From: Candidatus Zymogenus saltonus
Lineage (GTDB): Bacteria > Desulfobacterota > Zymogenia > Zymogenales > Zymogenaceae
Direction: 5' to 3'
Length of the DNA: 24,263 nucleotides
NCBI GenBank assembly: GCA_016929395.1
Contig: JAFGIX010000064.1
Coordinates: 1 to 24,263, forward strand
Shown here: positions 5,861-23,786 of the stretch, piece by piece
Position numbering within the stretch: position 1 is the first letter of the stretch
Layout: every line of letters starts with the position of its first letter
The notes under the pieces: generated by a model
Told to the model about the DNA's origin: nothing
Seen by the model: the letters and a program-made list of their open reading frames with translations, nothing else
Databases searched by the model: none
Program-made: the position numbers and the translations under genes

Positions 5861-6021
5861 TATGCATATATATAGTGATACCGTTAAAGCAGATATGTAA
5901 TTTGTTGTTTGCCCCCACGGAAGCACACCCTCTCCGACCGGAAGTTGAGTCACTCAAAATTACATTTCAAATAAACTGACTTCTTAATAAACTTGCTTTT
6001 CATAACTTGAGGAACTTGACA

Positions 6022-6654
6022 ATGACAGAAGGGAAATCTCTAACTCATTTGTCTTATCGATCGGTCGTGGATGCAATAGAGGACATCTTGGGAAAAAGCG
6101 GTAAAAACTCCGTCCTGAACTTCGCCGGGTTGGGCTGGATGGTGAATAACCCGGTCGATTACGACCCCGAAGCCAGGGTCGCTTTCGATGATGTAACAAG
6201 GCTGTTTTACGGGGTCAGGGAGATCGTGGGGAATAAAGGATACGACATCATAATGTTCAGGGGGGGTGTAACCTCCGTAAAGAACATTGTAAAGCACTCC
6301 TTGCCCCTCCAAACCCTCATTACCATGAAATTAGACCCTATCGAAAAGCTAAAGTTGGGTTACCGGGCGTATATAACCAACGCAGGATACGATCCGGACA
6401 AGACGATGGAGCACTTCGGCGAGACCAGACAGATACTCATCCACAGGCCGGACTGCACGGAGTGTGAGATATACACCAAAGACAGTGAAAAACTAAAGGA
6501 ATTCAAGGAGCCTTCCTGCTCCTTTATTAAGGGCATTCTGTATGAGATCGGAAACATCTTCAAGGAAACAAAGGTGGCGGTGAATGAGGTGAAATGCAGG
6601 CTGCTGGGAGATGACGAGTGCCTCTATAAGATAGATTACGAGATCATCGGATAG
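6022..6654 (+). CDS. Cys-rich small protein with a V4R-like (putative small-hydrophobic-ligand-binding) C-terminal domain, 210 aa; paralog 1
   Basis: GAGGA lies 7 nt upstream of the ATG at 6022. The track start at 6007 is a TTG. C-terminal pattern CxxC...C...KC...GDDxC[LY]Y (DCTECEIY, PSCSF, VKCRLLGDDECLY) matches my recollection of the V4R domain (XylR/DmpR N-terminus, BchJ, COG1719). It is clearly paralogous to the next gene. Confidence 0.75.
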   Translation: MTEGKSLTHLSYRSVVDAIEDILGKSGKNSVLNFAGLGWMVNNPVDYDPEARVAFDDVTRLFYGVREIVGNKGYDIIMFRGGVTSVKNIVKHSLPLQTLITMKLDPIEKLKLGYRAYITNAGYDPDKTMEHFGETRQILIHRPDCTECEIYTKDSEKLKEFKEPSCSFIKGILYEIGNIFKETKVAVNEVKCRLLGDDECLYKIDYEIIG

Positions 6655-6822
6655 ATTTCAGCAGCGTTTAATTGACCTTGCAGGTCATTCTAAAGACGAG
6701 CTTGGGGGATCGATTTTACAAAGGGGTCTGTTTCTAAACATCTTTTTGTGCCTGCCGCAAAATGGCGCTCGCTGTCTTCTTGAACCGATATGGATATTAT
6801 CGGCAGGTCAAAGGAGGACAGG

Positions 6823-7410
6823 ATGGCCCAAGAGGGAATGGTCTCCAACATCACAATGAGATGCTCCATCGACGCCATAACCGAGATTTTGGGGGAGAAC
6901 GGGTGCAAGATAATCTTCAAGGGAGCCGGCATCCTTGACGTATTCGAGAATCCTCCCCCCTATGATTTCAATCCCTGTGTCACCGAGGGCAAGAGGGACA
7001 AAATGATTGCGGAGGTCGCAGATATTCTGGGACTCGAGGGCGCCCTGGGCGTTTGGAGACGCATAGGATTTACCGGAGCCAAATACGCGGTGGAGATAGG
7101 ACACGTCCTTGACGACAAGGAGGGACTCGAACCGGACGAGAAGTTCCTGAAGGCCCTCGAGCTGTGGAGCCTCGCCACCAGCGAGGGGAGAATAGTCATG
7201 CGCGACGACGGAAAGGCGGATTTTGACGTCTTCAACTGCCTTACCTGTATAAATTACAAATCCAAGAGGCCGATCTGCGCAACAACCGCGGGGGCGCTCC
7301 AATACATGTCGGACTGGGCCTACGGCGAGAAAAAGTATATAGTAAGGGAGATCAAGTGCAAGGCGATGGGGGACGATACCTGTTACTATACTTTGACGGA
7401 ACGGGATTAG
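6823..7410 (+). CDS. Cys-rich V4R-like small protein, 195 aa; paralog 2
   Basis: AAGGAGG at 6811-6817 lies 5 nt before the ATG at 6823. The track start at 6790 has no SD. Starting at 6823 makes the N-terminus colinear with paralog 1 (12 residues before Y/MRxxIDAIxEILG). The same five Cys are conserved (NCLTCINY, PICAT, IKCKAMGDDTCYY). Confidence 0.75.
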   Translation: MAQEGMVSNITMRCSIDAITEILGENGCKIIFKGAGILDVFENPPPYDFNPCVTEGKRDKMIAEVADILGLEGALGVWRRIGFTGAKYAVEIGHVLDDKEGLEPDEKFLKALELWSLATSEGRIVMRDDGKADFDVFNCLTCINYKSKRPICATTAGALQYMSDWAYGEKKYIVREIKCKAMGDDTCYYTLTERD

Positions 7411-7519: not shown

Positions 7520-7557
7520 GGCAGGTCTCAAGAGCCGTCGCACCCCTTGAGCCTGCC
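7520..7557. promoter_or_regulatory. Inverted repeat between V4R paralog 2 and the GRE gene (ggcaggtctcaag / cttgagcctgcc, 13-nt loop)
   Basis: Arms at 7520-7532 and 7546-7557. An alternative aagggg/cccctt pairing (7515-7520 / 7543-7548) is possible. No U-tract. It sits 15 nt upstream of a -35 box. It could be an attenuator, a terminator or an operator. Confidence 0.3.
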
Positions 7558-7571
7558 GCTTTCCCCTGTCC

Positions 7572-7600
7572 TTGACTTTTGGCGCAATATCGACTATAAA
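7572..7600 (+). promoter_or_regulatory. Sigma-70-type promoter immediately upstream of the GRE gene (TTGACT-17-TATAAA)
   Basis: TTGACT at 7572-7577, a 17-nt spacer, TATAAA at 7595-7600, about 36 nt before the ATG at 7636. Confidence 0.4.
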
Positions 7601-7635
7601 CTAATTAAAAACCTGTAAACATTTGGGAGTTGACC

Positions 7636-10035
7636 ATGGAATCTGAGGCGTTAAATCTTAAAGAGAAGCTGAAGATCAAGGCGGTCAGGAACGTCAGGCG
7701 GGGATACGCGGAGGACGAGTCGGCGAGAGGCATGTACCGCCCCGGGATCACGCTGGACATACAGAGGTCGCGGCTGTTGACCGAATCGTACAGGGAGACC
7801 GAGGACGAGCCGATGGTGATGAGGCGGGCCAAGGGTCTCTACAACATCCTCTCAAAGATGGACATCTACATCCAGGACTGGGAGAGGATAGTAGGAAACA
7901 ACGTATCAACGCCTGAAGGCCTCTACTTTCCCATAGACATGAACTGGCGCTCAGTAAAGAGGGTGGTCAGCGGAAAGGAGGGGGAGGGTCTCCTTGACGA
8001 CGCCGGCAGGGAGGAGCTGGGGGAACTGGTCGATTACTGGCGCGGAAGATCGATGAGCGACATCCAGCAAAACACCTTCACCGGCGACGAGCTGAAGTAC
8101 TGGCGGTACGAGGGGACCTTCATGTGGACGCACTGGTCGGAGCTCGGAATCCCGAACTACGAAAAGATATTTAGGGTAGGCCTCAAGGGTATCATCGAGG
8201 AGGCGAGGAACCGCCTCGACGAGCTTGACCGGATTGTGCCTCTCGATTACGTCGATCAGAAGGAGTTTTTGCAGGCCGTTATAATATCTCTCAATGCAGT
8301 GATAAAGTTCGCCCACCGCTACGCCGAGCTTGCGGTAGAATTGCTCCTTAAGGCCAAAGATCCCGAGGACAGGCGGAGGCTTGAAAAAATTCAAAAGAGT
8401 TGCCTGTGGGTGCCGGAGAATCCCCCGCGAAACCTGGTCGAGGCCCTCCAGTCCTTCTTCTTCATACACGTCGTTCGATACATCGAGTATTCCACGCTGG
8501 GAATCGGGATTCGGTTCGACAAGATATTCGGCCCCTACTACGAGAGGGAGCTGAAAGAGGGAGCGATCACGAGAGAGGAGGGGCTGAAGCTTCTTCAGTT
8601 CCTCTGGGTCAAGTTTCACGAGCTGGGGCTCGTTTACTCCCCCATGCTGACCGCCGTATACGGAGGCGTGGCGTCCCTTCAGGCGATCACCCTTGGGGGT
8701 GTGGACGAAAACGGGGACGACGTCACAAACGAGATGACCTATCTCGTCCTGGATACGGCCGAGAGCATGAAGACGCTGGAGCCGAGCATCGCCCTGAGAT
8801 ACCACGACGGGACGCCGGACAAACTCCTCTCGAAGACGATAGATGTGATTCGTACCGGTATCGGCTATCCCTCCCTCTTCAACGACAAGTCGATTCTCCC
8901 CACCCTTACGGGGTGGGACGTCCCGGAGAGGGACGCCAGGGACTACGCGATCACCGGCTGCGTCTACCTGGAGCTTCCGGGCAAGAACATAGCCAGGAGG
9001 GCCTACGGAGGGATCCTCTTGACCAAGTGCCTCTGGTGGGCCCTTCACATGGGTAAAAATCCGGACACCGGGGAGCAGTGGGGCGCCCCCACCCCCGACC
9101 CGAGGTCCTTCAAATCGGCCGACGACCTGATGGACGCCTATCTCGAGCAGGTGCGCTTCTTCTTCGGGAAACTCAACAAGATCGAGAACACCTGCCGTAA
9201 CCTGTACGAAAAATACCTCCCCAGGCCATTCTACTCCGCCCTTCTGGACGGGTGCATCGAGAAGGGGATGGATTCGAGAAAGTGGGCTTATCCGTCGAGC
9301 GTCCACGACATCTGCATCATAATGGGCCCCACCAACACGGCCGACTCGATAACGGCGATCAAGAAGGTCGTCTTCGAGGACAAAAAGGTAACGATGGACG
9401 GGCTTATCAGGGCGATGGACAAGAACTGGGAGGGTTATGAAGAGATAAGACAGCTGATGCTGAACGCTCCTAAGTACGGAAACGACGACGATTACGCCGA
9501 CGAGATCGCTGTCCGGGTCCACCACGAGACCGCCCGGGTGATGGCGGAGTTCACCGACCGCTTCGGGAACCCCTGCCGTGGCGACGGGAGCGCCGTATCC
9601 GCCACCTACGGCGTCGCCATAAACACCCCCGCAACCCCGGACGGCAGGAGGGACGGGGAGGCCTTCAGCGACGCGACCCTCTCCCCGATTCAGGGGAGAG
9701 ACAGGAAGGGCCCAACGGCCGTCCTGAAATCCGCCTCAAAGATAGACACCACCAAGACCTACAACCACCTCCTGAACCAGAAGTTCCCCCCCTCGGCCCT
9801 GGAGGGGGAGATGAAGGAGGTGTTTAAGTCGTACATCAGGACATGGGGAGAACTCGGGGTCAGCCACGTCCAGTTCAACGTGGTAGACAAGGAGACTCTT
9901 TTGGACGCCCAGGAGAATCCCGGAAAATACCAGGACCTCATCGTCAGGGTGGCGGGGTACAGCGCCTATTTCGTCGACCTGAGCCGCGGACTCCAGGATT
10001 CGATCATATCGAGGACGCAGCAGGCCTTCAGCTGA
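7636..10035 (+). CDS. Glycyl radical enzyme (pyruvate formate-lyase superfamily, single-Cys PFL2/dehydratase-like class), 799 aa; substrate unknown
   Basis: GGGAG lies 6 nt upstream of the ATG at 7636. The track start at 7630 is a TTG. The C-terminal glycyl-radical fingerprint RVAGYSAYF has its Gly codon at 9955-9957 (residue 774, 25 from the end, the same offset as Gly734 in E. coli PflB). The mid-protein loop AITGCVYLELPG has a single candidate thiyl Cys (codon 8959-8961, residue 442). The size and N-terminal region fit GDH/CutC/HypD-like GREs rather than PFL itself. Confidence 0.9.
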   Translation: MESEALNLKEKLKIKAVRNVRRGYAEDESARGMYRPGITLDIQRSRLLTESYRETEDEPMVMRRAKGLYNILSKMDIYIQDWERIVGNNVSTPEGLYFPIDMNWRSVKRVVSGKEGEGLLDDAGREELGELVDYWRGRSMSDIQQNTFTGDELKYWRYEGTFMWTHWSELGIPNYEKIFRVGLKGIIEEARNRLDELDRIVPLDYVDQKEFLQAVIISLNAVIKFAHRYAELAVELLLKAKDPEDRRRLEKIQKSCLWVPENPPRNLVEALQSFFFIHVVRYIEYSTLGIGIRFDKIFGPYYERELKEGAITREEGLKLLQFLWVKFHELGLVYSPMLTAVYGGVASLQAITLGGVDENGDDVTNEMTYLVLDTAESMKTLEPSIALRYHDGTPDKLLSKTIDVIRTGIGYPSLFNDKSILPTLTGWDVPERDARDYAITGCVYLELPGKNIARRAYGGILLTKCLWWALHMGKNPDTGEQWGAPTPDPRSFKSADDLMDAYLEQVRFFFGKLNKIENTCRNLYEKYLPRPFYSALLDGCIEKGMDSRKWAYPSSVHDICIIMGPTNTADSITAIKKVVFEDKKVTMDGLIRAMDKNWEGYEEIRQLMLNAPKYGNDDDYADEIAVRVHHETARVMAEFTDRFGNPCRGDGSAVSATYGVAINTPATPDGRRDGEAFSDATLSPIQGRDRKGPTAVLKSASKIDTTKTYNHLLNQKFPPSALEGEMKEVFKSYIRTWGELGVSHVQFNVVDKETLLDAQENPGKYQDLIVRVAGYSAYFVDLSRGLQDSIISRTQQAFS

Positions 10036-10202: not shown

Positions 10203-11243
10203 ATGATGAAAAAGCTGTACATTTTATTTTTTCTCGTTATTTTTATCATTACCCTTTGCGCCCAAACAATGGCGGATGAGGCCGTAGGCTTTAAAGTCGT
10301 CACGGTTTCGGTTGGGGGCGAATATGAAATTTTATGCGGGGTATGGTACCCGGCCGCTGGAGGAAACGCCAGGGCTGCCTACGACTTCGGAAACGGCGCG
10401 GTTACGGGAAAGGCGATCAAAAACGCCGCCCCTAACAAAGATCTCGGCCCGCTTCCGATAATCGTATACTCCCACGGCTATTCGGGCTGCTCCCACTCGT
10501 CCGCCTTTCTTGTGGAGTCTCTTGCGGGGTCGGGATTCATCGTGATCGCCCCCGACCACACCGACGACCTGAAGGCGTGCAGCTTAAAGGAGGGCTTCGT
10601 AAGGGAGCGGGGATACGGATCCAAGCTCGCAAAAAGGGCGATACGATTAAGCCGGGCGCTCTCCAGCGGCGAATACGACACCGGCCACTTCAGATACAGG
10701 TACATGGAGGTGTCGGCCGCAATAGACTGGATAGTTAATGCGGGCGGTGATCCCGCGTCCCCCTTTTACGGCCTCGTGGACCCGGAAAAGATCGGGGCCG
10801 TCGGCCACTCCCTGGGGGCGTACAGCGTGCTTGCCGTATCGGGGGTAATCGATATCGCCCGCGATCCGAGGATCAGGGCGGTCGTTGCGATGTCGGGGCC
10901 GGGGGACAGGGTCTTTGCCTGCGACAAGATGACCGGTGTTAAGGTCCCCGCCATGCTGATGTACGGCGAAGACGAGAGGGGGCGAAAGGAAGAGGGATTA
11001 AACCTCCAGTATCGGTGTCTTGCTGAGCCGAAGTTCCTCCTTGTGATCTCGGGGGCGGATCACCTGACGTTTGCGGAGAGCAGTTTTAGGCGCAGAGACA
11101 GGGCCGCCGAGGAGAAGAGGCACACCGTTATAGCGAGGTACGTGGTTGTCTTCTTCGAGTATTTCATCAAGGGCCAAGAGGGGGCGAAGGGGGTGCTCAA
11201 AGTGCGGAATCCGGGCCTCGAACGGTACGATTTTAACTTTTGA
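10203..11243 (+). CDS. Secreted alpha/beta-hydrolase (dienelactone-hydrolase / PAF-acetylhydrolase / cutinase-like), 346 aa
   Basis: N-terminal signal peptide MMKKLYILFFLVIFIITLCAQTMA. Nucleophile elbow GHSLGA. VYSHGYSG oxyanion region. AGGAG lies 6 nt upstream. Confidence 0.8.
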   Translation: MMKKLYILFFLVIFIITLCAQTMADEAVGFKVVTVSVGGEYEILCGVWYPAAGGNARAAYDFGNGAVTGKAIKNAAPNKDLGPLPIIVYSHGYSGCSHSSAFLVESLAGSGFIVIAPDHTDDLKACSLKEGFVRERGYGSKLAKRAIRLSRALSSGEYDTGHFRYRYMEVSAAIDWIVNAGGDPASPFYGLVDPEKIGAVGHSLGAYSVLAVSGVIDIARDPRIRAVVAMSGPGDRVFACDKMTGVKVPAMLMYGEDERGRKEEGLNLQYRCLAEPKFLLVISGADHLTFAESSFRRRDRAAEEKRHTVIARYVVVFFEYFIKGQEGAKGVLKVRNPGLERYDFNF

Positions 11244-15442: not shown

Positions 15443-17005
15443 ATGGAGACATCAACGGAATATTCAAGGACAAGCAGGGAAACCACGGAGCTGAGCCTCA
15501 TCTACGAAATCAGCAAGACCCTCGACTCCAGCATGGAGATCGAGGATGTCCTGGGCCCTGTCCTCGAAAAGATGGCCACGCACATGGGGATGGTTCACGG
15601 CGCCATCACGCTTCTCGAGAGGCAGACCGGCGACATCTTCATCGACACCGCCTACGGCCTCTCCGATTCCCAGATGAAAAGGGGGAGATACAAGCTGGGC
15701 GAGGGAGTAACCGGAAGAGTCGTCCAGACCGGAAAGCCGGTTGTCGTCTCGCGAATCTCGGAGGAGCCCCAGTTCCTGAACAGGACCGGAGCGGGGAGGA
15801 GCTTCGCCGACAAGGACGTCTCCTTCATCTGCGTCCCCATAAAGCTGGAAAACGAGGTTATCGGCGCCCTGAGCTTCGACAGGCCCTACAGCGAAACGGC
15901 CCCCCTCGATGACGACATCCGAATACTCTCCATCATATCCTCCATGATAGCCCAGGCCGTCCACTTGAGGAGATCCGCCCAGGAGGAGCGCCAGAGACTC
16001 CTTGACGAGAATGTCAGGCTGAAGGAGGAGCTCAAGGACCGCTTTAAGCCCGACAACATCATAGGAAACTCCAAGGCGATGCAGGAGGTCTATGACCTGA
16101 TCATGCGGGTCTCCAAGACCAACGCGACGGTGCTGATCAAGGGGGAGAGCGGCACTGGAAAGGAGCTTGTCGCCCACGCCATCCATTTTCACAGCCAGAG
16201 GGCGAACAGCCCCTTCATAAAGGTCAACTGCGCGGCGCTGCCGGAGACGATCATAGAAAGCGAGCTCTTCGGCCACGAAAAGGGGGCCTTCACCGGCGCC
16301 CTCAAGACGAAGAAGGGGAGATTCGAGCTTGCCCACGGCGGGACCCTGTTCCTTGACGAGGTGGGGGACCTCTCCCAGGAGACCCAGATCAAGCTCTTGA
16401 GGGTCCTTCAGGAGCGGGAGTTCGAGAGGGTCGGGGGGACAGATACGATCAAGGTGAACGTCAGGATAATAACCGCCACAAACAGGGACATCGAGGCGCT
16501 GATAGAAAAAGGGAGCTTCAGGGAGGACTTATACTTTCGTCTGAACGTCTTTCCCATCCACATACCCCCGCTGAGAGACAGGAAAACGGACATCCTTCTT
16601 CTGGCCGACCACTTCGCCGAGAGGTACGGAAAAGAGAACAACAAGGCCATCAGGCGAATATCGACCCCCGCCATCGACATGTTGATGTGCTACCACTGGC
16701 CAGGAAACGTCCGTGAGCTCGAAAACACCATAGAGCGGGCCGTGATCCTGAGCAACAACAACGTTATCCACGGCCACCACCTCCCCCCCACCCTCCAGAC
16801 CGCCGAGGCCACGGGGACCCCCGTAAAGGCGACGCTTGGAGACGCCCTCGATTCGCTGGAGAGGGAGATGCTCCTGGACGCCCTTAAGTCCTCGAGGGGA
16901 AACAGGGCCGCCGCTGCGAGGCAGCTCGGCATATCGGAGAGGCTGATGGGGATACGCGTGAAAAAACACGGGATCGAGCCTGGAAGATTTCATACCAAAC
17001 GGTAG
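15443..17005 (+). CDS. Sigma-54-dependent transcriptional activator (bEBP) with N-terminal GAF domain, AAA+ core and C-terminal Fis-type HTH (NifA-like architecture), 520 aa
   Basis: Walker [15 protein letters not shown] motif in [15 protein letters not shown]. Arg-finger region. C-terminal [21 protein letters not shown]. The N-terminal roughly 170 aa is GAF-like. AAGGA lies 7 nt upstream. Confidence 0.9.
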
Positions 17006-17035
17006 CTTTATTAAGCTATTCCTACCATAAGGTAG
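16990..17035. promoter_or_regulatory. Putative enhancer (UAS) for the amtB sigma-54 promoter: TACC-aaac-GGTA (16993-17004, overlapping the activator stop codon) plus cTACC-ataa-GGTAg (17022-17035)
   Basis: Two TACC-N4-GGTA inverted repeats about 155-195 bp upstream of the -24/-12 element, the usual bEBP distance. The first lies within the 20-bp repeat shared with 15359-15378. Confidence 0.4.
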
Positions 17036-17186
17036 CATTTTTAAGCCTGACCGCCCCCATAATCCGCCAAACTTTCAAGATATTGGATCAATCCAAAAAA
17101 ACCGGATTTCATTTAAAACTATTAAATCAATAATATCAAGCCCTTATAAAACATCACCTCACTTTTAACGGCGACCTCCCGCCGCT

Positions 17187-17201
17187 TGGCACAAAACTTG
17201 C
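17187..17201 (+). promoter_or_regulatory. Sigma-54 (-24/-12) promoter TGGCAC-aaaac-TTGC driving amtB-glnK(-flotillin-glnA-nadE?)
   Basis: TGGCAC at 17187-17192, a 5-nt spacer, TTGC at 17198-17201. Exact match to the RpoN consensus. About 105 nt upstream of the amtB ATG and downstream of a bEBP gene. Confidence 0.6.
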
Positions 17202-17307
17202 GATAGTATCTCAATCAAGATTGAAAAGGGATATGCCGCAGGCATATCTCCCTATAGTGGCTCGCTACATAGGAAATCGGAACGGAATAACTTAAAGGAG
17301 GTTGTTT

Positions 17308-18828
17308 ATGAGAAGACTATTTGTTGGAAAGGCGATTCTCATGGTGATGCTTCTGCTGTTTACGGTACTCATTCCCATTTTCCCTGCGGCCGTGGCTCAG
17401 GAAGAGGGGGCGCCGGCGACGGAAGTGGTTACCACCGCAGAGGACACCGCTTCAGAGGCGGGAGATGCGGCGGAAGGGGCGGAGACCCCCACGGGAGAGG
17501 TCCCTCCTCCGGCGGTCGTCGATGAAGCCGCGGAAGACGGCGCCGACACCGCCGCGGAAGATAAGACCGAAGAGGCGACATACGTTACAAAGGCCGCCCT
17601 CGATACGGTCTGGGTGCTGATAGCCGGTGTGCTGGTCATGTTCATGCAGGCGGGGTTCGCAGTTTTAGAGGCGGGATTCGTCCGCGCCAAGAACTCCCTC
17701 AACGTCGTTATGAAGAACATAATGGATTTCTGCTTTGCAACCATAACGTACTGGGCGGTAGGCTTTGCGATCATGTTCGGGGCGGGGAACGCCCTGTTCG
17801 GCACCAGCGGCTTCTTCCTGAGCGATCCGACGGGGACGACGTTCGACTCGCTTAGCTGGACCATCGTCCCTCTCGAGGCGAAGTACTTCTTTCAGCTCGT
17901 CTTTTGCGCAACTTCGGCGACCATCGTTGCCGGGGCGGTGGCGGAGCGCACGAAGTTTGTAGCCTACATCATCTATTCCATCGTCATCTCCGCCGTGATA
18001 TACCCGGTGATCGGCCACTGGATCTGGGGAGGGGGCTGGCTGGGAAGCCTCGGAATGCTCGACTTTGCGGGATCGACCGTAGTTCACTCAACCGGCGGGT
18101 GGCTCTCCCTTGCGGGCGTCATCATCCTGGGACCAAGAGTGGGCAAGTATAAATCGGACGGGACACCAAAGGCCATTACGGGACACAACATACCCCTTGC
18201 CGCCCTGGGAGCCTTCATCCTATGGTTCGGGTGGTTCGGATTCAACGCGGGGAGCACAATGGCTGCTGACGCAGAGGATATCGCCCATATCGTAACCACC
18301 ACCAACCTCTCGGCCGGCGCCGGGGGGATTGCGGCGATGTTCACCTCATGGTGGATGTTTAAAAAGCCGGATATAAGCATGGCGATCAACGGCGCCCTGG
18401 CGGGGCTTGTGGGAATAACCGCCCCATGCGCCTTCGTGACCGCCGGCGGGGCCATCTGGATCGGGCTCTTTGCCGGGGTGCTTGTGGTCCTGGCGATACT
18501 CTTTCTTGACAAGGTCCTGAAGATCGACGATCCCGTGGGCGCCATCGCGGTCCACGGCGTAAACGGGGCCTGGGGCACCCTAGCCGTTGGGATCTTCGCC
18601 AAGGAGGGCGGTCTTCTCTACGGCGGCGGCTTCAAGCTGTTGGGTATCCAGGCGCTGGGCGTCGTCTCCGTGTTTGCCTTTGCGATGACCACGGGTCTTC
18701 TCCTCTTTTACGTGATCAAGCACCTGGTGGGATTCAGGGTTTCGAGGGAAGAGGAGCTGAGAGGCCTTGACATCGAAGAGCACGGCATGGAGTCGTATCC
18801 GAGCTTTCAGATCTTCACCACGGAATAA
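17308..18828 (+). CDS. amtB: Ammonium transporter Amt/MEP family, with signal peptide and an about 70-aa acidic Ala/Glu/Thr-rich N-terminal extension before TM1
   Basis: AAAGGAGG lies 6 nt upstream of the ATG at 17308. The track start at 17302 is a TTG. Amt signature DFAGSTVVHSTGG, the twin-His region, 11 TM helices. Followed directly by glnK. Confidence 0.9.
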   Translation: MRRLFVGKAILMVMLLLFTVLIPIFPAAVAQEEGAPATEVVTTAEDTASEAGDAAEGAETPTGEVPPPAVVDEAAEDGADTAAEDKTEEATYVTKAALDTVWVLIAGVLVMFMQAGFAVLEAGFVRAKNSLNVVMKNIMDFCFATITYWAVGFAIMFGAGNALFGTSGFFLSDPTGTTFDSLSWTIVPLEAKYFFQLVFCATSATIVAGAVAERTKFVAYIIYSIVISAVIYPVIGHWIWGGGWLGSLGMLDFAGSTVVHSTGGWLSLAGVIILGPRVGKYKSDGTPKAITGHNIPLAALGAFILWFGWFGFNAGSTMAADAEDIAHIVTTTNLSAGAGGIAAMFTSWWMFKKPDISMAINGALAGLVGITAPCAFVTAGGAIWIGLFAGVLVVLAILFLDKVLKIDDPVGAIAVHGVNGAWGTLAVGIFAKEGGLLYGGGFKLLGIQALGVVSVFAFAMTTGLLLFYVIKHLVGFRVSREEELRGLDIEEHGMESYPSFQIFTTE

Positions 18829-18843
18829 AAAAGGAGGTTAACA

Positions 18844-19185
18844 ATGAAACTTATCGTGGCGATAATACAGCCCCATAAACTCCCCGACGTCAAGCAGGCC
18901 CTCTACGAAAACGAGATTTATCTGATGACGGTATCAAACGCCCTCGGCTCCGGGAGGCAACTGGGATACAAAGAGGTCTACAGGGGTGTCCCCGAGGAAG
19001 TAAATCTTTTGAAAAAAATCAAACTCGAGATTGCGGTGAATGAAGAGTACGTGGAGCCGACGATCGACGCCATCATCAAGGGGGCGAAGACCGGAAACAT
19101 CGGTGACGGGAAGATATTCGTCCTCGACCTGCCGCAGGTCATCAGGATCAGGACGGGGGAGAGGGGAAGGTCGGCAATAGGTTAA
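18844..19185 (+). CDS. glnK: PII nitrogen regulatory protein (GlnK-type, amtB-linked), 113 aa
   Basis: [20 protein letters not shown]..., a T-loop [14 protein letters not shown], a C-terminal GDGKIFV. AAGGAGG lies 6 nt upstream. The position aligned to E. coli Tyr51 (RGAEY) reads RGVPE, so there is no uridylylatable Tyr. Confidence 0.9.
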
Positions 19186-19242
19186 AAGGAGTTAAAATAG
19201 TGAAAATCTTATCGAAGATCGACAGTTTACAAATTTTGACTT

Positions 19243-19271
19243 TTGACAAAAACAGTAAGGAGGCTTATAAT
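19243..19271 (+). promoter_or_regulatory. Perfect-consensus sigma-70-like element TTGACA-17-TATAAT whose -10 overlaps the flotillin start codon
   Basis: TTGACA at 19243-19248, a 17-nt spacer containing the flotillin SD TAAGGAGG (19256-19263), then TATAAT at 19266-19271. The ATG is at 19270-19272. A transcript from it would start inside the ORF, so its function is unclear. Confidence 0.25.
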
Positions 19272-20556
19272 GGATGTGCTGAGTCTAAAACCGGAAACGA
19301 TCGGTATATTGATAGCGATTGCCATAATTGCAATCGCCGTGATCATTGCGTTTATCAAGGCTAACCTTCATGTGTGTCCCCCGAACGAGCTTCTCATTTT
19401 CTCGGGCAAAAAGAGGAAGTTGAAGGACGGCACGATAGTGGGGTACAGGGCAATCAAGGGCGGAAGAGGACTCAAGATCCCGATTATCGAGTCGGTATCG
19501 AGGATGCCTCTCAATACCTTTACGGTGGATATGGAGCTGATCGGGGCGCTGACAAACGGGATCATCCCGATAAACATCGAGGCGATGGCAAACGTGAAGG
19601 TGGCCGGAAGCGAGTCGGAGGGAATCAACAACGCCCTGGAGCGTTTCCTCGGCAGGAACATGGGGGAGATATCTCAGGTCGCCAGGGAGACGATAGAGGG
19701 CTCCCTTCGGGGTGTCCTTGCCACACTGTCCCCCGAGGAGGCAAACCAGAAGAGGCTGGAGTTCGCCGAAAAGGTGTCCGACGAGGCAAGCGCTGACTTC
19801 AGGAAATTGGGGTTGGTCCTCGACACCTTCAAGATAAAGAACATATCCGACCCCGAGGGGTACATGGATAATATAGGGCGCAAGAAGAATGCGGAGGTCA
19901 AGAGGGACGCCATCATAGCGGAGGCGAAAACCGAGGCCGAATCGAGAATCGCCACGGCGGAGTCAAAGAGGAAGGGGAGCATAGCCGAATACGAGGCGGA
20001 GCTTGCTGTAATCGAGGCTGAAAACAGCTACAAGATAAAGAAGGCCAAGCTGGCCGAAGAGGTCAACAGGGCGGAGTCCAGGGCCAGCGTCGCGGGAGAC
20101 ATAGCGAGGGTGACCGAGGAGGAGAAGCTCGAAGACGCCAGGATAAAGATGAACAAGAAGAAATACGAGGCGGAAACCGTGGTCCCGGCCCAGGCGGACA
20201 AAGAGGCGAAGATCCTCTACGCCAAGGGAAAGGCGGCGCGGATCGTCGAGGACGGCAAGGCGATGGCGGAGTCTGTCAAACTCCTCAGGGAGGAATGGGA
20301 GAAGGACGAGACGAGAGAGCTGTTCCTCATCCAGCAGCTTCCCATGATCCTGGACAAGATAACGAGCGTCGTCAAGGATAACCTGAGGGTGGACAAGCTC
20401 ACGATCTTGGACAACGGCGACGGAAACGGCTTACCGACGCTTGTCAAGGGGCTCACGGGTTCGACTGCAGCCTTTTTCGAGGGGATAAAGAGCGCCACCG
20501 GACTCGACATCCCGGAGATCCTTCAACCCAAGAAGGGGAGTAAGAGCGCCGGTTAA
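19270..20556 (+). CDS. Flotillin-like SPFH/band-7 membrane-scaffold protein (YqiK/FloT-like), about 428 aa
   Basis: TAAGGAGG lies 6 nt upstream of the ATG at 19270. The track start at 19243 is a TTG. N-terminal TM helix IGILIAIAIIAIAVIIAFI, an SPFH domain, then a long Glu/Ala/Lys-rich coiled coil (AEAKTEAESRIATAESKRKG...) and a C-terminal flotillin tail. Confidence 0.85.
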   Translation: MDVLSLKPETIGILIAIAIIAIAVIIAFIKANLHVCPPNELLIFSGKKRKLKDGTIVGYRAIKGGRGLKIPIIESVSRMPLNTFTVDMELIGALTNGIIPINIEAMANVKVAGSESEGINNALERFLGRNMGEISQVARETIEGSLRGVLATLSPEEANQKRLEFAEKVSDEASADFRKLGLVLDTFKIKNISDPEGYMDNIGRKKNAEVKRDAIIAEAKTEAESRIATAESKRKGSIAEYEAELAVIEAENSYKIKKAKLAEEVNRAESRASVAGDIARVTEEEKLEDARIKMNKKKYEAETVVPAQADKEAKILYAKGKAARIVEDGKAMAESVKLLREEWEKDETRELFLIQQLPMILDKITSVVKDNLRVDKLTILDNGDGNGLPTLVKGLTGSTAAFFEGIKSATGLDIPEILQPKKGSKSAG

Positions 20557-20618
20557 AAACTACAACGATACAGTGCAAACTTGTCGAAAGGTTCGGCATA
20601 AAGACAAAGAAGAACCTA

Positions 20619-20661
20619 AATAACTGGGATTCAAGGATTTAATCCTAAAATCCCAGTTATT
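20619..20661. promoter_or_regulatory. 43-bp palindrome upstream of glnA (aATAACTGGGATT-caaggatttaatcctaa-AATCCCAGTTATt); candidate operator for a nitrogen regulator, or a structured terminator/leader
   Basis: 12-bp arms at 20620-20631 and 20649-20660. The centre holds nested GGATT/AATCC repeats. It ends immediately before a -10-like TACAAT (20661-20666) and 39 nt before the glnA ATG. Confidence 0.3.
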
Positions 20662-20699
20662 ACAATATTCTACACTCAAAACAGGATAAGGAAAAAACT

Positions 20700-22028
20700 A
20701 TGATTGTAAACACAAAGAGAGACGTGCTAAAAATCGTCAAGGAGAGGAACGTCAGCTTCATCCAGTTCTGGTTTACGGACATACTCGGATTTCTGAAGAG
20801 CTTTGCCGTCACCCCGTCCGAGCTGGAGGAGGGATTGTCCGAGGGAATGGGCTTTGACGGCTCTTCTATCGAGGGCTTTGCGAGGATCGAAGAGAGCGAC
20901 ATGATCGCAAAGCCGGATCCATCGACCTTTCAGTTCCTTCCCTGGAGGGACGAGGAAAGGCCGGTGGCAAGGATGTTCTGCGACATACTCGAGCCCACGG
21001 GCGAGCCTTACGCGGGCGATCCGAGACATGCATTCAAGAAGCTCCTCCAGAGGGCGAAGGACGAGGGCTATATATATTATATAGGCCCAGAGCCTGAGTT
21101 CTTCTATTTTGCCAGCAAGGACGAGCCGAAGACCCTGGATTCGGGCGGGTATTTCGACGCGACCCCCCTGGATCTGGCTTCGATGCTCAGGAGGGAGACG
21201 ATCTTCGCGCTCCAGAAGTTCGGGATCGACATAGAGTACAGCCACCACGAGGTCGCGCCGAGCCAGCACGAGATCGATCTCAGGTTCGACGAGGGCCTCA
21301 GGATGGCCGACAAGTTCATGACCCTAAGAACCACCGTCAAGGAGATCGCGAGACTCAACGGGTACCACGCAACGTTCATGCCCAAGCCGATCTTCGGGGA
21401 GAACGGGAGCGGGATGCACGTCCACCAGTCCCTCTTCAGGGATGACAGAAACGCCTTTTTCGACGCCAACGATCCGATGAGCCTTTCGGCCGAGGGGAAG
21501 AGCTACATAGCGGGAATCCTGAAGCACGCCAGGGAGATAACGGCCGTGTGCAACCAGTGGGTGAACTCCTACAAGCGCCTCGTCCCCGGCTACGAGGCCC
21601 CGGTCTACGTCAGCTGGGCGAGGCGAAACAGGTCGACGATGGTGAGGGTGCCCCAGTACAAGCCCGGAAAGGAGAAGGCCACGAGGATGGAGTTTCGCTC
21701 GCCGGACCCCGCCGCCAACCCGTACCTGGCCTTTGCGGTGATGCTGGCCGCGGGTCTCAAGGGCATCAAGGAGGGCTACACCCTTCCGGCTCCGATCGAG
21801 GAAGACCTGTATGAATTCAGCCCGGAGAAGAGGAGGGAGAGGGGTATCACCGAGCTTCCGGGAAACCTCTTCGAGGCGGTGGGCGAGCTCGAAAAGAGCG
21901 AGCTTGTAAGGGACGCCCTTGGCGATCACATATTTTACAAGTTTATCGAGAACAAGAAAATAGAGTGGGACAGGTACAGAATACACGTCAGCAAATACGA
22001 GATAGACAACTACCTCCCCATCATTTAA
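20700..22028 (+). CDS. glnA: Glutamine synthetase type I (probably GSI-alpha, not adenylylated), 442 aa
   Basis: GS signatures FDGSSIEGF and KPIFGENGSGMHVHQSLF, a beta-grasp N-domain. The region aligned to the E. coli adenylylation site NLYDLP reads LPGNLFEAVG (Phe, not Tyr). Confidence 0.92.
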   Translation: MIVNTKRDVLKIVKERNVSFIQFWFTDILGFLKSFAVTPSELEEGLSEGMGFDGSSIEGFARIEESDMIAKPDPSTFQFLPWRDEERPVARMFCDILEPTGEPYAGDPRHAFKKLLQRAKDEGYIYYIGPEPEFFYFASKDEPKTLDSGGYFDATPLDLASMLRRETIFALQKFGIDIEYSHHEVAPSQHEIDLRFDEGLRMADKFMTLRTTVKEIARLNGYHATFMPKPIFGENGSGMHVHQSLFRDDRNAFFDANDPMSLSAEGKSYIAGILKHAREITAVCNQWVNSYKRLVPGYEAPVYVSWARRNRSTMVRVPQYKPGKEKATRMEFRSPDPAANPYLAFAVMLAAGLKGIKEGYTLPAPIEEDLYEFSPEKRRERGITELPGNLFEAVGELEKSELVRDALGDHIFYKFIENKKIEWDRYRIHVSKYEIDNYLPII

Positions 22029-22058
22029 TCTTTTACCAACCGTTTTTTGGAAGGGAAA

Positions 22059-23786
22059 ATGGGCATTTTGAGAATCGCCCAGGCACAGATAAACACAACC
22101 GTTGGCGACCTTGGCGGCAACTCCGCCAAGGTCGCCTCTTACATTAAAAGGGCCGTAGACGCCGATGCGGACATCGTCACGTTCCCGGAACTCGCCATAA
22201 GCGGATACCCCCCGGAAGACATCCTCTTGAAGCCGCAATTTCTGAGGGACTGCAGAAAGGCGATCGAGAGCGTCTTCGAGTCCACGGACGGGATCGCCGC
22301 GGTCGTCGGCTTTCCCGACTTCGCAGGAGACAAGGTCTTCAACGCCGCCGCCCTTATTTATGACCGAAAACTGCTGGCGATATACCACAAGGTGGAGCTT
22401 CCCAACTACGGGGTGTTCGACGAGAAGCGCTATTTCACTAGCGGAAACGAGCCCCTGACCTTTCTCCTGAACGGCAAGCGCCTCATGGTGACAGTATGCG
22501 AGGATATCTGGATAGAGGGAAGCCCGGTGGAAAATTTCGCATTAGACAACGACGTGGACATCGCCCTCAACCTCTCCGGCTCCCCCTTCCACGCCGGGAA
22601 GATTGAGATCAGGAAAAAGATAGCGTCAAGCTTCGCCGTCAGGACTAACACCTTCGTCTGTTACAACAACCTCGTCGGCGGCCAGGACGAACTCGTATTC
22701 GACGGGACGAGCCTCGTAGTGAACAGGGAGGGAAACGTCATAGACATGGGGAAGAGGTTCGAAGAAGACCTCTTCATCACCGACTTCGCGGATACGGAGA
22801 TCGACACCGCCGTCCCGTTTCCGAGGAGGGAGGCCCAAGATGCGGAGATCGTTATTGAAACGGAGGGAGGCAAAAGAAAGACGGCTGAAGACAGGCCGAT
22901 CCCCGAGATCGCCAGAAGGAAGTATGAAAATCACGGCGAAATAGACGAGATATGGAGGGCCCTCGTCCTGGGAACCGGAGATTACGTGAGGAAAAACGGC
23001 TTCAAGAAGGTCGTGATCGGCCTCTCCGGCGGGATAGACTCCACGCTGACCGCCGCCGTGGCGGTAGCCGCCTTAGGCAAAGAAAACGTCATCGGCGTCA
23101 CGATGCCGTCCATGTACACCTCGGATGAGACATTCAAAGACTCTGACCTGACGGCGAAGAACCTCGGAATCAGGCTGATAACAGTGCCCATAGAGCCGAT
23201 ATTCATATCGTATCTCGATCTCCTCGAAGGCCCCTTCGGCGAGGGGGAGCCGGGGGTCGAGGCGGAGAACCTCCAGGCGAGAATCAGAGGGAATATCCTC
23301 ATGGCCCTTTCCAACAGGTTCGGCTGGCTCGTCCTGACCACCGGCAACAAGAGCGAGATGGCGGTCGGCTACGCGACCCTCTACGGAGACATGGCGGGCG
23401 GCTTCGCCGTTATCAAGGACGTCCCCAAGACGACCGTATATAAAGTCTCGGAATACGTCAACAAGATCGAAGGGAGAGAGGTAATCCCTAAGAGCGTCAT
23501 CGAGCGACCCCCTACCGCGGAGCTGAGGCCCGACCAGAAGGACGAGGACTCACTCCCCCCCTACGAGGTACTCGATCCGATCCTGTCCGCCTACGTAGAG
23601 GGAGACGAAGACCCGAAAGAGATCGCGAAAAGAGGATATGACATCGAGACCGTGCTTGACGTCGTGAAGATGGTCGATCGCAACGAATACAAGAGGAGGC
23701 AGGCCCCGCCTGGGGTAAAGATCACGCCTAAGGCCTTCGGCAGGGACAGGAGGCTCCCCATCACGAACAGGTACCCGAAGAGGTGA
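22059..23786 (+). CDS. nadE: Glutamine-dependent NAD+ synthetase (N-terminal nitrilase/CN-hydrolase glutaminase domain plus C-terminal NAD synthetase domain), about 575 aa
   Basis: GGAAGGGA SD before the ATG at 22059. The track start at 22047 is a TTG. CN-hydrolase features FPELAISGY and VTVCEDIW. PP-loop GLSGGIDST. 30-nt gap from glnA, so probably co-transcribed. Confidence 0.9.
   Translation: MGILRIAQAQINTTVGDLGGNSAKVASYIKRAVDADADIVTFPELAISGYPPEDILLKPQFLRDCRKAIESVFESTDGIAAVVGFPDFAGDKVFNAAALIYDRKLLAIYHKVELPNYGVFDEKRYFTSGNEPLTFLLNGKRLMVTVCEDIWIEGSPVENFALDNDVDIALNLSGSPFHAGKIEIRKKIASSFAVRTNTFVCYNNLVGGQDELVFDGTSLVVNREGNVIDMGKRFEEDLFITDFADTEIDTAVPFPRREAQDAEIVIETEGGKRKTAEDRPIPEIARRKYENHGEIDEIWRALVLGTGDYVRKNGFKKVVIGLSGGIDSTLTAAVAVAALGKENVIGVTMPSMYTSDETFKDSDLTAKNLGIRLITVPIEPIFISYLDLLEGPFGEGEPGVEAENLQARIRGNILMALSNRFGWLVLTTGNKSEMAVGYATLYGDMAGGFAVIKDVPKTTVYKVSEYVNKIEGREVIPKSVIERPPTAELRPDQKDEDSLPPYEVLDPILSAYVEGDEDPKEIAKRGYDIETVLDVVKMVDRNEYKRRQAPPGVKITPKAFGRDRRLPITNRYPKR

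Follow-up and report, generated by a model that had tools for sequence, protein, structure and literature searches.

An orphan family of glycyl radical enzymes that lacks the CXE glutamate and groups with X-succinate synthases

Introduction

Glycyl radical enzymes (GREs) carry out chemically hard anaerobic reactions, such as the activation of hydrocarbon C-H bonds and the cleavage of C-N, C-S and C-O bonds. A gene of this type is present at positions 7636..10035 (forward strand) of a 24,263-nucleotide stretch of Candidatus Zymogenus saltonus, contig JAFGIX010000064.1 (hereafter, the window). It raises the question of which reaction is catalyzed by a GRE that has no glutamate two residues after its catalytic cysteine (Cys+2). 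Eliminases and isomerases keep this residue within a CXE motif, whose Glu hydrogen-bonds the substrate (PMC13450708). The motif is also retained in two decarboxylases, 4-hydroxyphenylacetate decarboxylase (HPAD) and indoleacetate decarboxylase (IAD), and whole GRE clades are still without assignment (2026 review). A first-pass annotation of the window, made from its sequence, had suggested that the protein is not a simple eliminase homolog and that neighboring V4R-domain proteins could be its partners.

The first of these suggestions was supported by the Cys-loop motif, by the mapping of substrate ligands and by tree placement, and no NCBIfam cut-off was passed by the protein. Because its family lacks the catalytic Glu and is closest to enzymes that add hydrocarbons to fumarate, namely X-succinate synthases (XSS), it probably catalyzes a hitherto undescribed radical reaction. 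Our favored reading is that the window encodes a functional, stand-alone (alpha-only) GRE of an unnamed and widespread family, within a CXE-less branch that also holds XSS. We place this reading slightly below an even chance. That the protein is a carboxylate-binding GRE related to XSS, not an eliminase, and represents a new functional type is, in our judgment, evenly balanced.

Results

Gene and radical core

The gene begins with an ATG at 7636, as read from the sequence, and a Shine-Dalgarno-like GGGAG (7625..7629, forward strand) is located 6 nt before it. According to the list of open reading frames (ORFs) and the translation, it codes for 799 amino acids. The ORF is intact and contains all family-invariant residues. 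A protein search returned a 100% match to P0001, protein JW984_12725 of a Deltaproteobacteria metagenome-assembled genome (MAG), and Pfam detected the PFL-like (6e-161) and Gly_radical (2.7e-30) domains. The glycyl radical loop, RVAGYSAYF (9946..9972, forward strand), contains Gly774 (9955-9957), which aligned with Gly763 of glycerol dehydratase (GDH) and Gly829 of benzylsuccinate synthase (BSS), and this loop was kept in 120/120 homologs. The C-terminus as a whole (R771-V-A-G774-Y-SAYFVD-L-SRGL-Q-DS-I-IS-R793) exactly matched the published GRE fingerprint, RVxG[FWY]x6-8[FL]x4Qx2[IV]x2R, which holds the radical glycine (PMC13450708).

An AlphaFold2 (AF2) model of the protein (pLDDT 86, pTM 0.88) supported the 10-stranded barrel fold of GREs, with TM scores of 0.86-0.91 to solved members. 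However, fold alone assigns no class, since in a Foldseek search against the PDB all solved GREs of the PFL2 type were about equally close within this range of TM scores (28-33% identity).

A family-specific Cys loop

The loop that carries the candidate thiyl residue, AITGCVYLELPG, is located at 8947..8982 on the forward strand and, in translation, includes Cys442 (8959-8961), Tyr444 (8965-8967) and Glu446 (8971-8973). The numbers given to Cys442 and Gly774 in the first-pass annotation were correct when counted from the ATG at 7636, and its choice of Cys442 as the thiyl Cys was also sound. In both HMMER and MAFFT alignments this residue matched the catalytic Cys433 of GDH, Cys468 of isethionate lyase (IseG), Cys493 of BSS and Cys477 of (1-methylalkyl)succinate synthase (MASS). 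Likewise, the proposed substitution of the CXE glutamate was confirmed: in these alignments, Tyr444 matched Glu435 in the GDH loop IIGCVEPQKPGKT and with Glu470 in the IseG loop VSGCTEARMPNRD. The annotation had further stated that XSS and pyruvate formate-lyase (PFL) differ from eliminases at Cys+2. This statement was right, because XSS loops read [LA]-C-M-S-P, and that of PFL reads C-C-V-S. In contrast to the two adjacent Cys residues of PFL-type enzymes, the Zymogenus loop has a single Cys.

Homologs were collected by protein search, yielding 120 sequences with 69-100% identity to the query. C442, V443, Y444, E446, P448, G449 and R455 were identical in all of them, and each homolog displayed the pattern C-V-Y-x-E-x-P-G. 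Given that the mean column identity was only 78%, the GCVYLE-type loop is a signature of the family and no chance variant. The invariant E446, at Cys+4, is placed two residues past Y444 on a strand predicted by AF2 (residues 444-446). Residues two apart on a strand would point to the same face, and thus a Tyr444-Glu446 pair is plausible from the periodicity of the modeled strand. A second glutamate, E169, was also invariant among family members.

Isolation of the family among known GREs

All 120 homologs fell into one cluster at 50% identity, and the next representatives were 38-46% identical to the query. The family comprises at least 120 clusters at 90% identity, a lower bound, and spans several phyla. 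Its hosts were MAGs of Thermodesulfobacteriota, Syntrophales, Chloroflexi and Leptospirales from anoxic sediment, soil and lakes.

Among NCBIfam models, the best match was TIGR01774, which describes a broad PFL2/glycerol-dehydratase subfamily, and its score (538 bits) was below the cut-off of 678. Equivalog models, including CutC, HypD, HpsG, HpfG and PflD, gave 385-535 bits against cut-offs of 1000-1109. Both decarboxylase models failed (368 bits versus 1100 for IAD and 290 versus 1150 for HPAD), and the pyruvate/2-ketobutyrate formate-lyase model TIGR01255 reached 101 bits versus 994, with identity to E. coli PflB of about 27%. When ten neighboring representatives were scanned in the same way, none was above a cut-off. 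Our literature search found no paper on this GRE family, and publications on uncharacterized GREs with CoA ligases or on new fumarate-addition clades contained general statements only.

Tree placement and the loop-1 insertion

Phylogenetic placement required XSS references. A tblastn search found none in the plasmid collection; BssA-like genes were fetched from metagenomes by the bssA primer pattern, and the sequences of TutD (4PKC) and MasD (9O8U) were taken from HMMER alignments. Residue numbering was checked against published positions for BSS (E189, Y197, S199, I384, F385, L391, C493, R508, G512/513, W613, N615, Q707 and G829) and MASS (W185, C477, R492, F600 and E690).

Of the 150 best representatives, 128 were near full length, and we examined their Cys loops. 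CXE was missing from almost every sequence close to the query, where loops such as CAVITV, CMWPVV, CVTWFL, CVSWTI and CMIPTI occurred, and it predominated farther away. Neighbor-joining (NJ) trees with bootstraps were built from 85 sequences (unrooted) and from 149 sequences (rooted on E. coli PflB), and in these the family was located outside every characterized eliminase clade. It grouped with P0121 (bootstrap 97-100%) and then with P0122 (93-94%) inside a 22-taxon orphan clade (87-94%), which in turn joined an XSS clade (74-75%) composed of TutD, MasD, P0186, P0178, P0142, P0138, P0141, P0156, P0144 and a few others. In the PflB-rooted tree, the orphan clade had a bootstrap of 90% and its union with the XSS clade 74%, and Glu at Cys+2 was present in 0/38 sequences of the orphan and XSS union versus 64/109 of the other non-outgroup sequences.

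This grouping is backed by an independent character, since an N-terminal insertion, designated loop 1, is common to both clades. In the query it corresponds to residues 15-38 (KAVRNVRRGY...RGMYRPG; 7678..7749, forward strand), with K15, V17, N19, R21, M33 and R35 invariant in 120/120 homologs, and it follows the first N-terminal helix, ahead of the conserved ERxRLxTES helix. The loop-1 segment was 15-16 residues long in XSS-type sequences and 24-37 in most of the orphan clade, compared with 11 or fewer (mode 6) in 110 other GREs; altogether, 33 of the 36 scorable orphan and XSS sequences had 15-37 residues. The query segment contains 27 residues, about 10 more than in XSS, and the insert in TutD is R55-I65 (BSS residues 55-65). 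In structures of BSS and MASS, loop 1 is in contact with the glycyl radical domain, and the beta subunit shifts it (PMC12358834). Pairwise scores also showed proximity to XSS: P0138, which has a C-M-S-P-G loop and whose best PDB matches were TutD and MasD, scored 525 bits to the query versus 442 for the best solved eliminase.

An unusual loop was observed within the XSS-like clade. P0142 (829 aa, 38% identical to the query) has a double Cys, E-G-C-C-V-S-H-C, which contrasts with the 2026 review, where this arrangement is limited to PFL and TdcE.

Predicted active site

Active-site residues were mapped by alignment and not from coordinates. On this basis, the substrate ligands of eliminases are lost in the query. 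The GDH ligands H164, S282, Y339, E435, D447 and Y640 aligned with L170, G289, L348, Y444, A456 and S652, and the first five of these six count as replaced. Those of IseG (R189, Q193 and R678) aligned with H166, L170 and D650. The residues of BSS that form the toluene wall (I384, F385, L391, I617, V709 and L711) corresponded to I,V341, Y342, L348, I,M563, V654 and A656, and the candidate pocket, as far as these aligned positions represent it, is hydrophobic like the wall of BSS. V341 and Y342 are contained in the sole internal segment of the AF2 model with pLDDT <50 (residues 332-345; window 8629-8670), which may be a mobile active-site loop.

A further feature of this region is Arg454-Arg455 (8995..9000, forward strand), a candidate carboxylate-binding site at the start of barrel strand beta6. 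R455 was present in 120/120 homologs and R454 in 116/120, and XSS-like representatives had [KR]-R in the same columns. In addition, R492 of MasD and R454 of the query are both located 10 residues before a conserved Lys of the next helix, with one extra residue in BSS. In BSS (R508) and MASS (R492), an Arg of strand beta6 binds fumarate (PMC12358834), and this residue seems to be kept in the query as R454/R455. Other predicted active-site positions were occupied by invariant polar residues: H166, E169, Y342, E446, D650 and S652.

These positions also bear on an alternative explanation, that the protein is an atypical 1,2-eliminase or isomerase with the usual chemistry, in which abstraction of a hydrogen precedes the departure of a leaving group with the help of a base. 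Here a Tyr444-Glu446 dyad or Glu169 would be the base and R454/R455 would hold the carboxylate of a hydroxy or amino acid. The top pairwise scores to solved structures did belong to eliminases (IseG, 442 bits; GDH, 434 bits), but all equivalog cut-offs were missed and the family, which has the XSS type of loop 1, was grouped with XSS and not with CXE-type sequences. The Val after Cys and the later P-G-K resemble the loop of GDH and propanediol dehydratase (PD); however, all characterized eliminases and isomerases retain CXE (PMC13450708). Although E446 is an invariant residue of the same strand as Y444, and the invariant E169, D650 and H166 together with R454/455 would suit a zwitterionic substrate, the substrate ligands of GDH, IseG and HypD were not conserved in the family. 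We regard an eliminase of this kind as fairly improbable, and we retain a non-eliminase, XSS-related enzyme as the preferred reading.

Operon partners

Gene context was surveyed in 16 informative family loci from GTDB genomes and assemblies. A GRE activase (TIGR02494, 351 bits) was detected within 2 kb of the GRE gene in 11/16 loci, a TetR regulator near it in about 12/16 and an AMP-forming acyl-CoA ligase in at least 6/16. The usual gene order was a divergent TetR followed by GRE, activase and ligase. The ligase was closest to models of long-chain fatty-acid-CoA ligases and is of the medium/long-chain type. Its best solved relative was A. fulgidus FadD-1, followed by malonyl-, feruloyl-, coumaroyl- and benzoyl-CoA ligases with similar scores, and these comparisons with solved relatives gave no substrate clue. 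Two 3-hydroxyacyl-CoA dehydrogenases and an acyl-CoA dehydrogenase, which are functions of beta-oxidation, were found nearby in locus L144. Conserved small ORFs (35-130 aa) were searched for within 3.5 kb of the GRE gene in 19 family loci, and none was found apart from antisense shadows of the large genes. On the basis of the aligned residues and the gene context, the enzyme probably binds a carboxylate via R454/R455 beside a hydrophobic pocket, and the acid is probably fed to the acyl-CoA ligase.

The ligase is also relevant to a second alternative, a decarboxylase or another GRE that breaks C-C bonds, with an acid of the aryl- or alkyl-acetate type as its substrate. R454/R455 would bind this acid by its carboxylate, and Tyr444 would donate a proton to it. 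The resemblance of the neighboring ligase to fatty-acid, coumarate and benzoate CoA ligases implies that such acids are handled at the locus, but a decarboxylase would have to share its acid substrate with the CoA ligase of its own operon, a competing enzyme, and no ligase is required if the product is a hydrocarbon. A pocket predicted to be hydrophobic would agree with a decarboxylase, yet the IAD and HPAD scores were far under their cut-offs, and no ORF for an HPAD-type small subunit was found in the family loci searched. In phenylacetate decarboxylase (PAD) itself, the residue at Cys+2 is Gln, and an aromatic residue at Cys+13 is essential (2026 review). The query has Arg at Cys+12/+13, and the PAD-like representative P0173 was located outside the orphan and XSS superclade. 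A decarboxylase is thus an improbable explanation, and the XSS-related, carboxylate-binding enzyme is again preferred.

Several individual loci had additional features. The family gene was present twice in a Chloroflexi MAG, VGOO01, on separate contigs (L004 and L023), and both copies had a divergent TetR gene and an activase gene downstream. Upstream genes in L005 and L023 encoded large secreted repeat proteins of about 520 and 950 aa, with Pro/Thr-rich linkers. In L022 (8000-13600) GRE, activase and ligase were each broken into 2-3 ORFs; either these genes are pseudogenes in decay, or frameshift errors arose in a long-read assembly.

Neighborhood of the gene in the window

In the window, the GRE gene is preceded by two genes for V4R-domain proteins, a (6007..6654; Pfam V4R 4e-07) and b (6790..7410; Pfam V4R 5e-09), and followed by a gene for an alpha/beta hydrolase similar to PAF-AH and PETase by Pfam (10203..11243), all on the forward strand. 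Eight homologs of V4R protein b were found. This arrangement of the V4R pair and hydrolase around GRE occurred in 2/16 informative loci, the window and its relative L002 (GRE 93% identical), and except for L002 no homolog of V4R protein a was detected beside GRE in other family loci; it is a neighbor outside the conserved module. In locus L149 (8001-9807), an ortholog of V4R protein b (69% identical) was followed after 158 bp by the hydrolase, with no GRE gene between them and with DUF6206 upstream as in the window, and the hydrolase is a neighbor that belongs with the V4R gene.

A promoter-like element, TTGACT-17 nt-TATAAA (7572..7600, forward strand), was read by eye before the GRE gene. It was conserved in L002 (about 1130-1160), where the rest of the spacer differed and included ~220 extra bases. 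A consensus promoter and terminator scan of the region before GRE called nothing; the scanner passed over the element because the last base of its -10 hexamer is A. An imperfect inverted repeat without a T-run (window 7520-7557) was noticed upstream of the promoter-like element. Since V4R and hydrolase genes are adjacent without GRE in L149, and since GRE has its own promoter-like element, it looks as if the GRE gene was inserted between the V4R and hydrolase genes in the lineage of the window and is transcribed on its own. GC content was examined for horizontal transfer, and the ranges overlapped (GRE, 55-61%; flanks, 44-60%).

The idea that V4R proteins are partners of the GRE was not supported, given the 2/16 loci, the V4R-hydrolase pair of L149 and the separate promoter-like element. 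We rejected V4R as a functional partner; the recurrent partners are the activase, TetR and the acyl-CoA ligase. No paper joining the terms "glycyl radical" and "V4R" was found in the literature search. Both V4R proteins had a C-x2-C ... C ... C-x6-C pattern in their C-terminal V4R domain and a weak NCBIfam match to the redox-sensing regulator MsvR, and neither had a recognizable DNA-binding domain. Farther downstream, the window contains a nitrogen-assimilation cluster unrelated to GRE (15443-23786), which encodes a sigma-54 activator with a GAF domain, an ammonium transporter, P-II, an SPFH protein, glutamine synthetase and a glutamine-dependent NAD synthase.

Discussion

What reaction might such an enzyme catalyze? 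The specific reaction that we favor, although we consider it possible but doubtful, is a hydroalkylation of the XSS type carried out without beta/gamma subunits. A more specific version, which we think unlikely, is that the family is the first accessory-subunit-independent hydroalkylase, a single-polypeptide relative of BSS and alkylsuccinate synthase. Its hydrophobic substrate would be joined to fumarate or to an unsaturated acid resembling it; the long, invariant loop 1 would cap the enzyme in place of the beta subunit, and Tyr444/Glu446 would reshape the fumarate site. In the mechanism that we propose, a radical-SAM activase encoded elsewhere in the genome would activate the GRE, the radical on Gly774 would generate the thiyl of Cys442, and the thiyl would take a hydrogen from the hydrophobic substrate. 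The carboxylate, which could be that of fumarate or belong to the substrate itself, would be held by R454/R455 and the backbone of the Cys loop, with Tyr444, possibly together with Glu446, as a hydrogen-bond or proton partner. The acid product would then be thioesterified by the ligase. The long loop 1 perhaps assumes the capping role of beta/gamma subunits.

Several observations weigh against an XSS-related, stand-alone enzyme. The alignment leaves an uncertainty of 1-2 positions for the Arg residues, and the remaining BSS ligands of fumarate (Y197, S199, W613, N615 and Q707) corresponded to S168, L170, I/F559, V/I561 and S652; MASS itself is unlike BSS at most of these positions (PMC12358834). 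The Cys loop of the query reads G-C-V-Y-L, as opposed to C-M-S-P in TutD, MasD and metagenomic BssA, and the invariant polar residues of the predicted active site are a hint that the substrate is polar or zwitterionic. The trees were simple NJ trees with moderate support (74-75%) for the union with XSS, and their sampling was drawn from the 150 representatives closest to the query in sequence, without named HPAD, PAD, IAD and AAD references. Because no conserved small ORFs were present beside GRE, the family loci are without beta/gamma subunit genes, and FeS-containing beta and gamma subunits, plus delta in MASS, are needed for activity in every characterized XSS (PMC12358834). Finally, no activase or other radical-SAM gene, TetR gene or ligase gene was found within the 24-kb window. 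As 11/16 loci carry an activase and the window none, the activase is a trait of the family and not of the window locus.

It is very improbable that the window copy is stranded and inactive after horizontal insertion between the V4R and hydrolase genes without an activase: the missing partner genes, the L149 arrangement and a solitary GRE copy in L146 could be so explained, but the ORF is intact with every family-invariant residue kept, the arrangement and promoter-like element are shared with L002, whose GRE is 93% identical, and activases are often encoded elsewhere in a genome, of which 24 kb was viewed here.

The family, with its sharp active-site signature C-V-Y-x-E...R-R, is the nearest stand-alone relative of XSS found in this study. 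Their dependence on accessory subunits makes XSS enzymes difficult to reconstitute. If the family does form C-C bonds without such subunits, it would offer an easier entry for studying and engineering radical hydroalkylation, and it would reveal a way of turning over carbon in common anoxic habitats that has gone unrecognized. The family is widespread in ordinary anoxic soils, lakes and sediments and is not confined to oil-affected sites. If the chemistry is otherwise, the family would define a new GRE reaction class. In either case, residues Y444, E446 and R454/R455, loop 1, and the minimal gene set of GRE, activase, ligase and TetR provide experimental handles.

Comparison with known systems places these features in context. 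PhdB, the PAD enzyme, which was compared by its description in the 2026 review only, is a GRE that, like the query, has another residue (Gln484) in place of Glu at Cys+2. Its substrate is a hydrophobic carboxylate, and it works without an accessory subunit. It differs in having Trp at Cys+13, where the query has Arg, and in the position of PAD-like P0173 relative to the superclade.

Eliminases, represented by GDH (1R8W), PD (5I2A), IseG (5YMR), CutC and HypD, scored highest in pairwise sequence comparison (31-34% identity, E 1e-131 to 1e-114). They have the same length and fold as the query and likewise no accessory subunits, the context of their loop, G-C-V...P-G-K, is similar in GDH and PD, and the activase in operons of the query family is of their two-ferredoxin-cluster type. 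On the other hand, they have the CXE Glu in place of the Tyr of the query, and they have no loop 1.

Closer relatives were the orphan-clade clusters P0122-P0130, P0133, P0134, P0139, P0157 and P0158, which are 38-46% identical to the query and also without CXE. Most of them have a long loop 1, except P0158 (6 residues) and P0122 (12 residues), and several share P-G-K-N-[IL]-x-[HR]-R after Cys with the query. They differ in residues Cys+1 to +4, which are particular to each (AVIT, MWPV, VTWF, VSWT, MIPT and others), and none of them has the Y-x-E pair of the query family.

With regard to XSS, that is, the alpha subunits of BSS (TutD/BssA; 4PKC/5BWE) and MASS (MasD; 9O8U), identity is 29-31%, and the query has C-V-Y-x-E in the Cys loop, not C-M-S-P. 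The query is also without the N- and C-terminal extensions that bind other subunits and without beta/gamma/delta genes, and, unlike XSS, its family is found in hosts and habitats that are not specifically hydrocarbon-rich. Nevertheless, XSS and the query have the same GRE fold (TM 0.91), and they are alike in the absence of Glu at Cys+2, the Arg of strand beta6, loop 1, the hydrophobic residues at toluene-wall positions and their grouping in the trees at 74-75% bootstrap. The acyl-CoA ligase near the gene in the query family is a further likeness to XSS, as the gene clusters for alkanes (ass) include assK, which codes for a comparable ligase.

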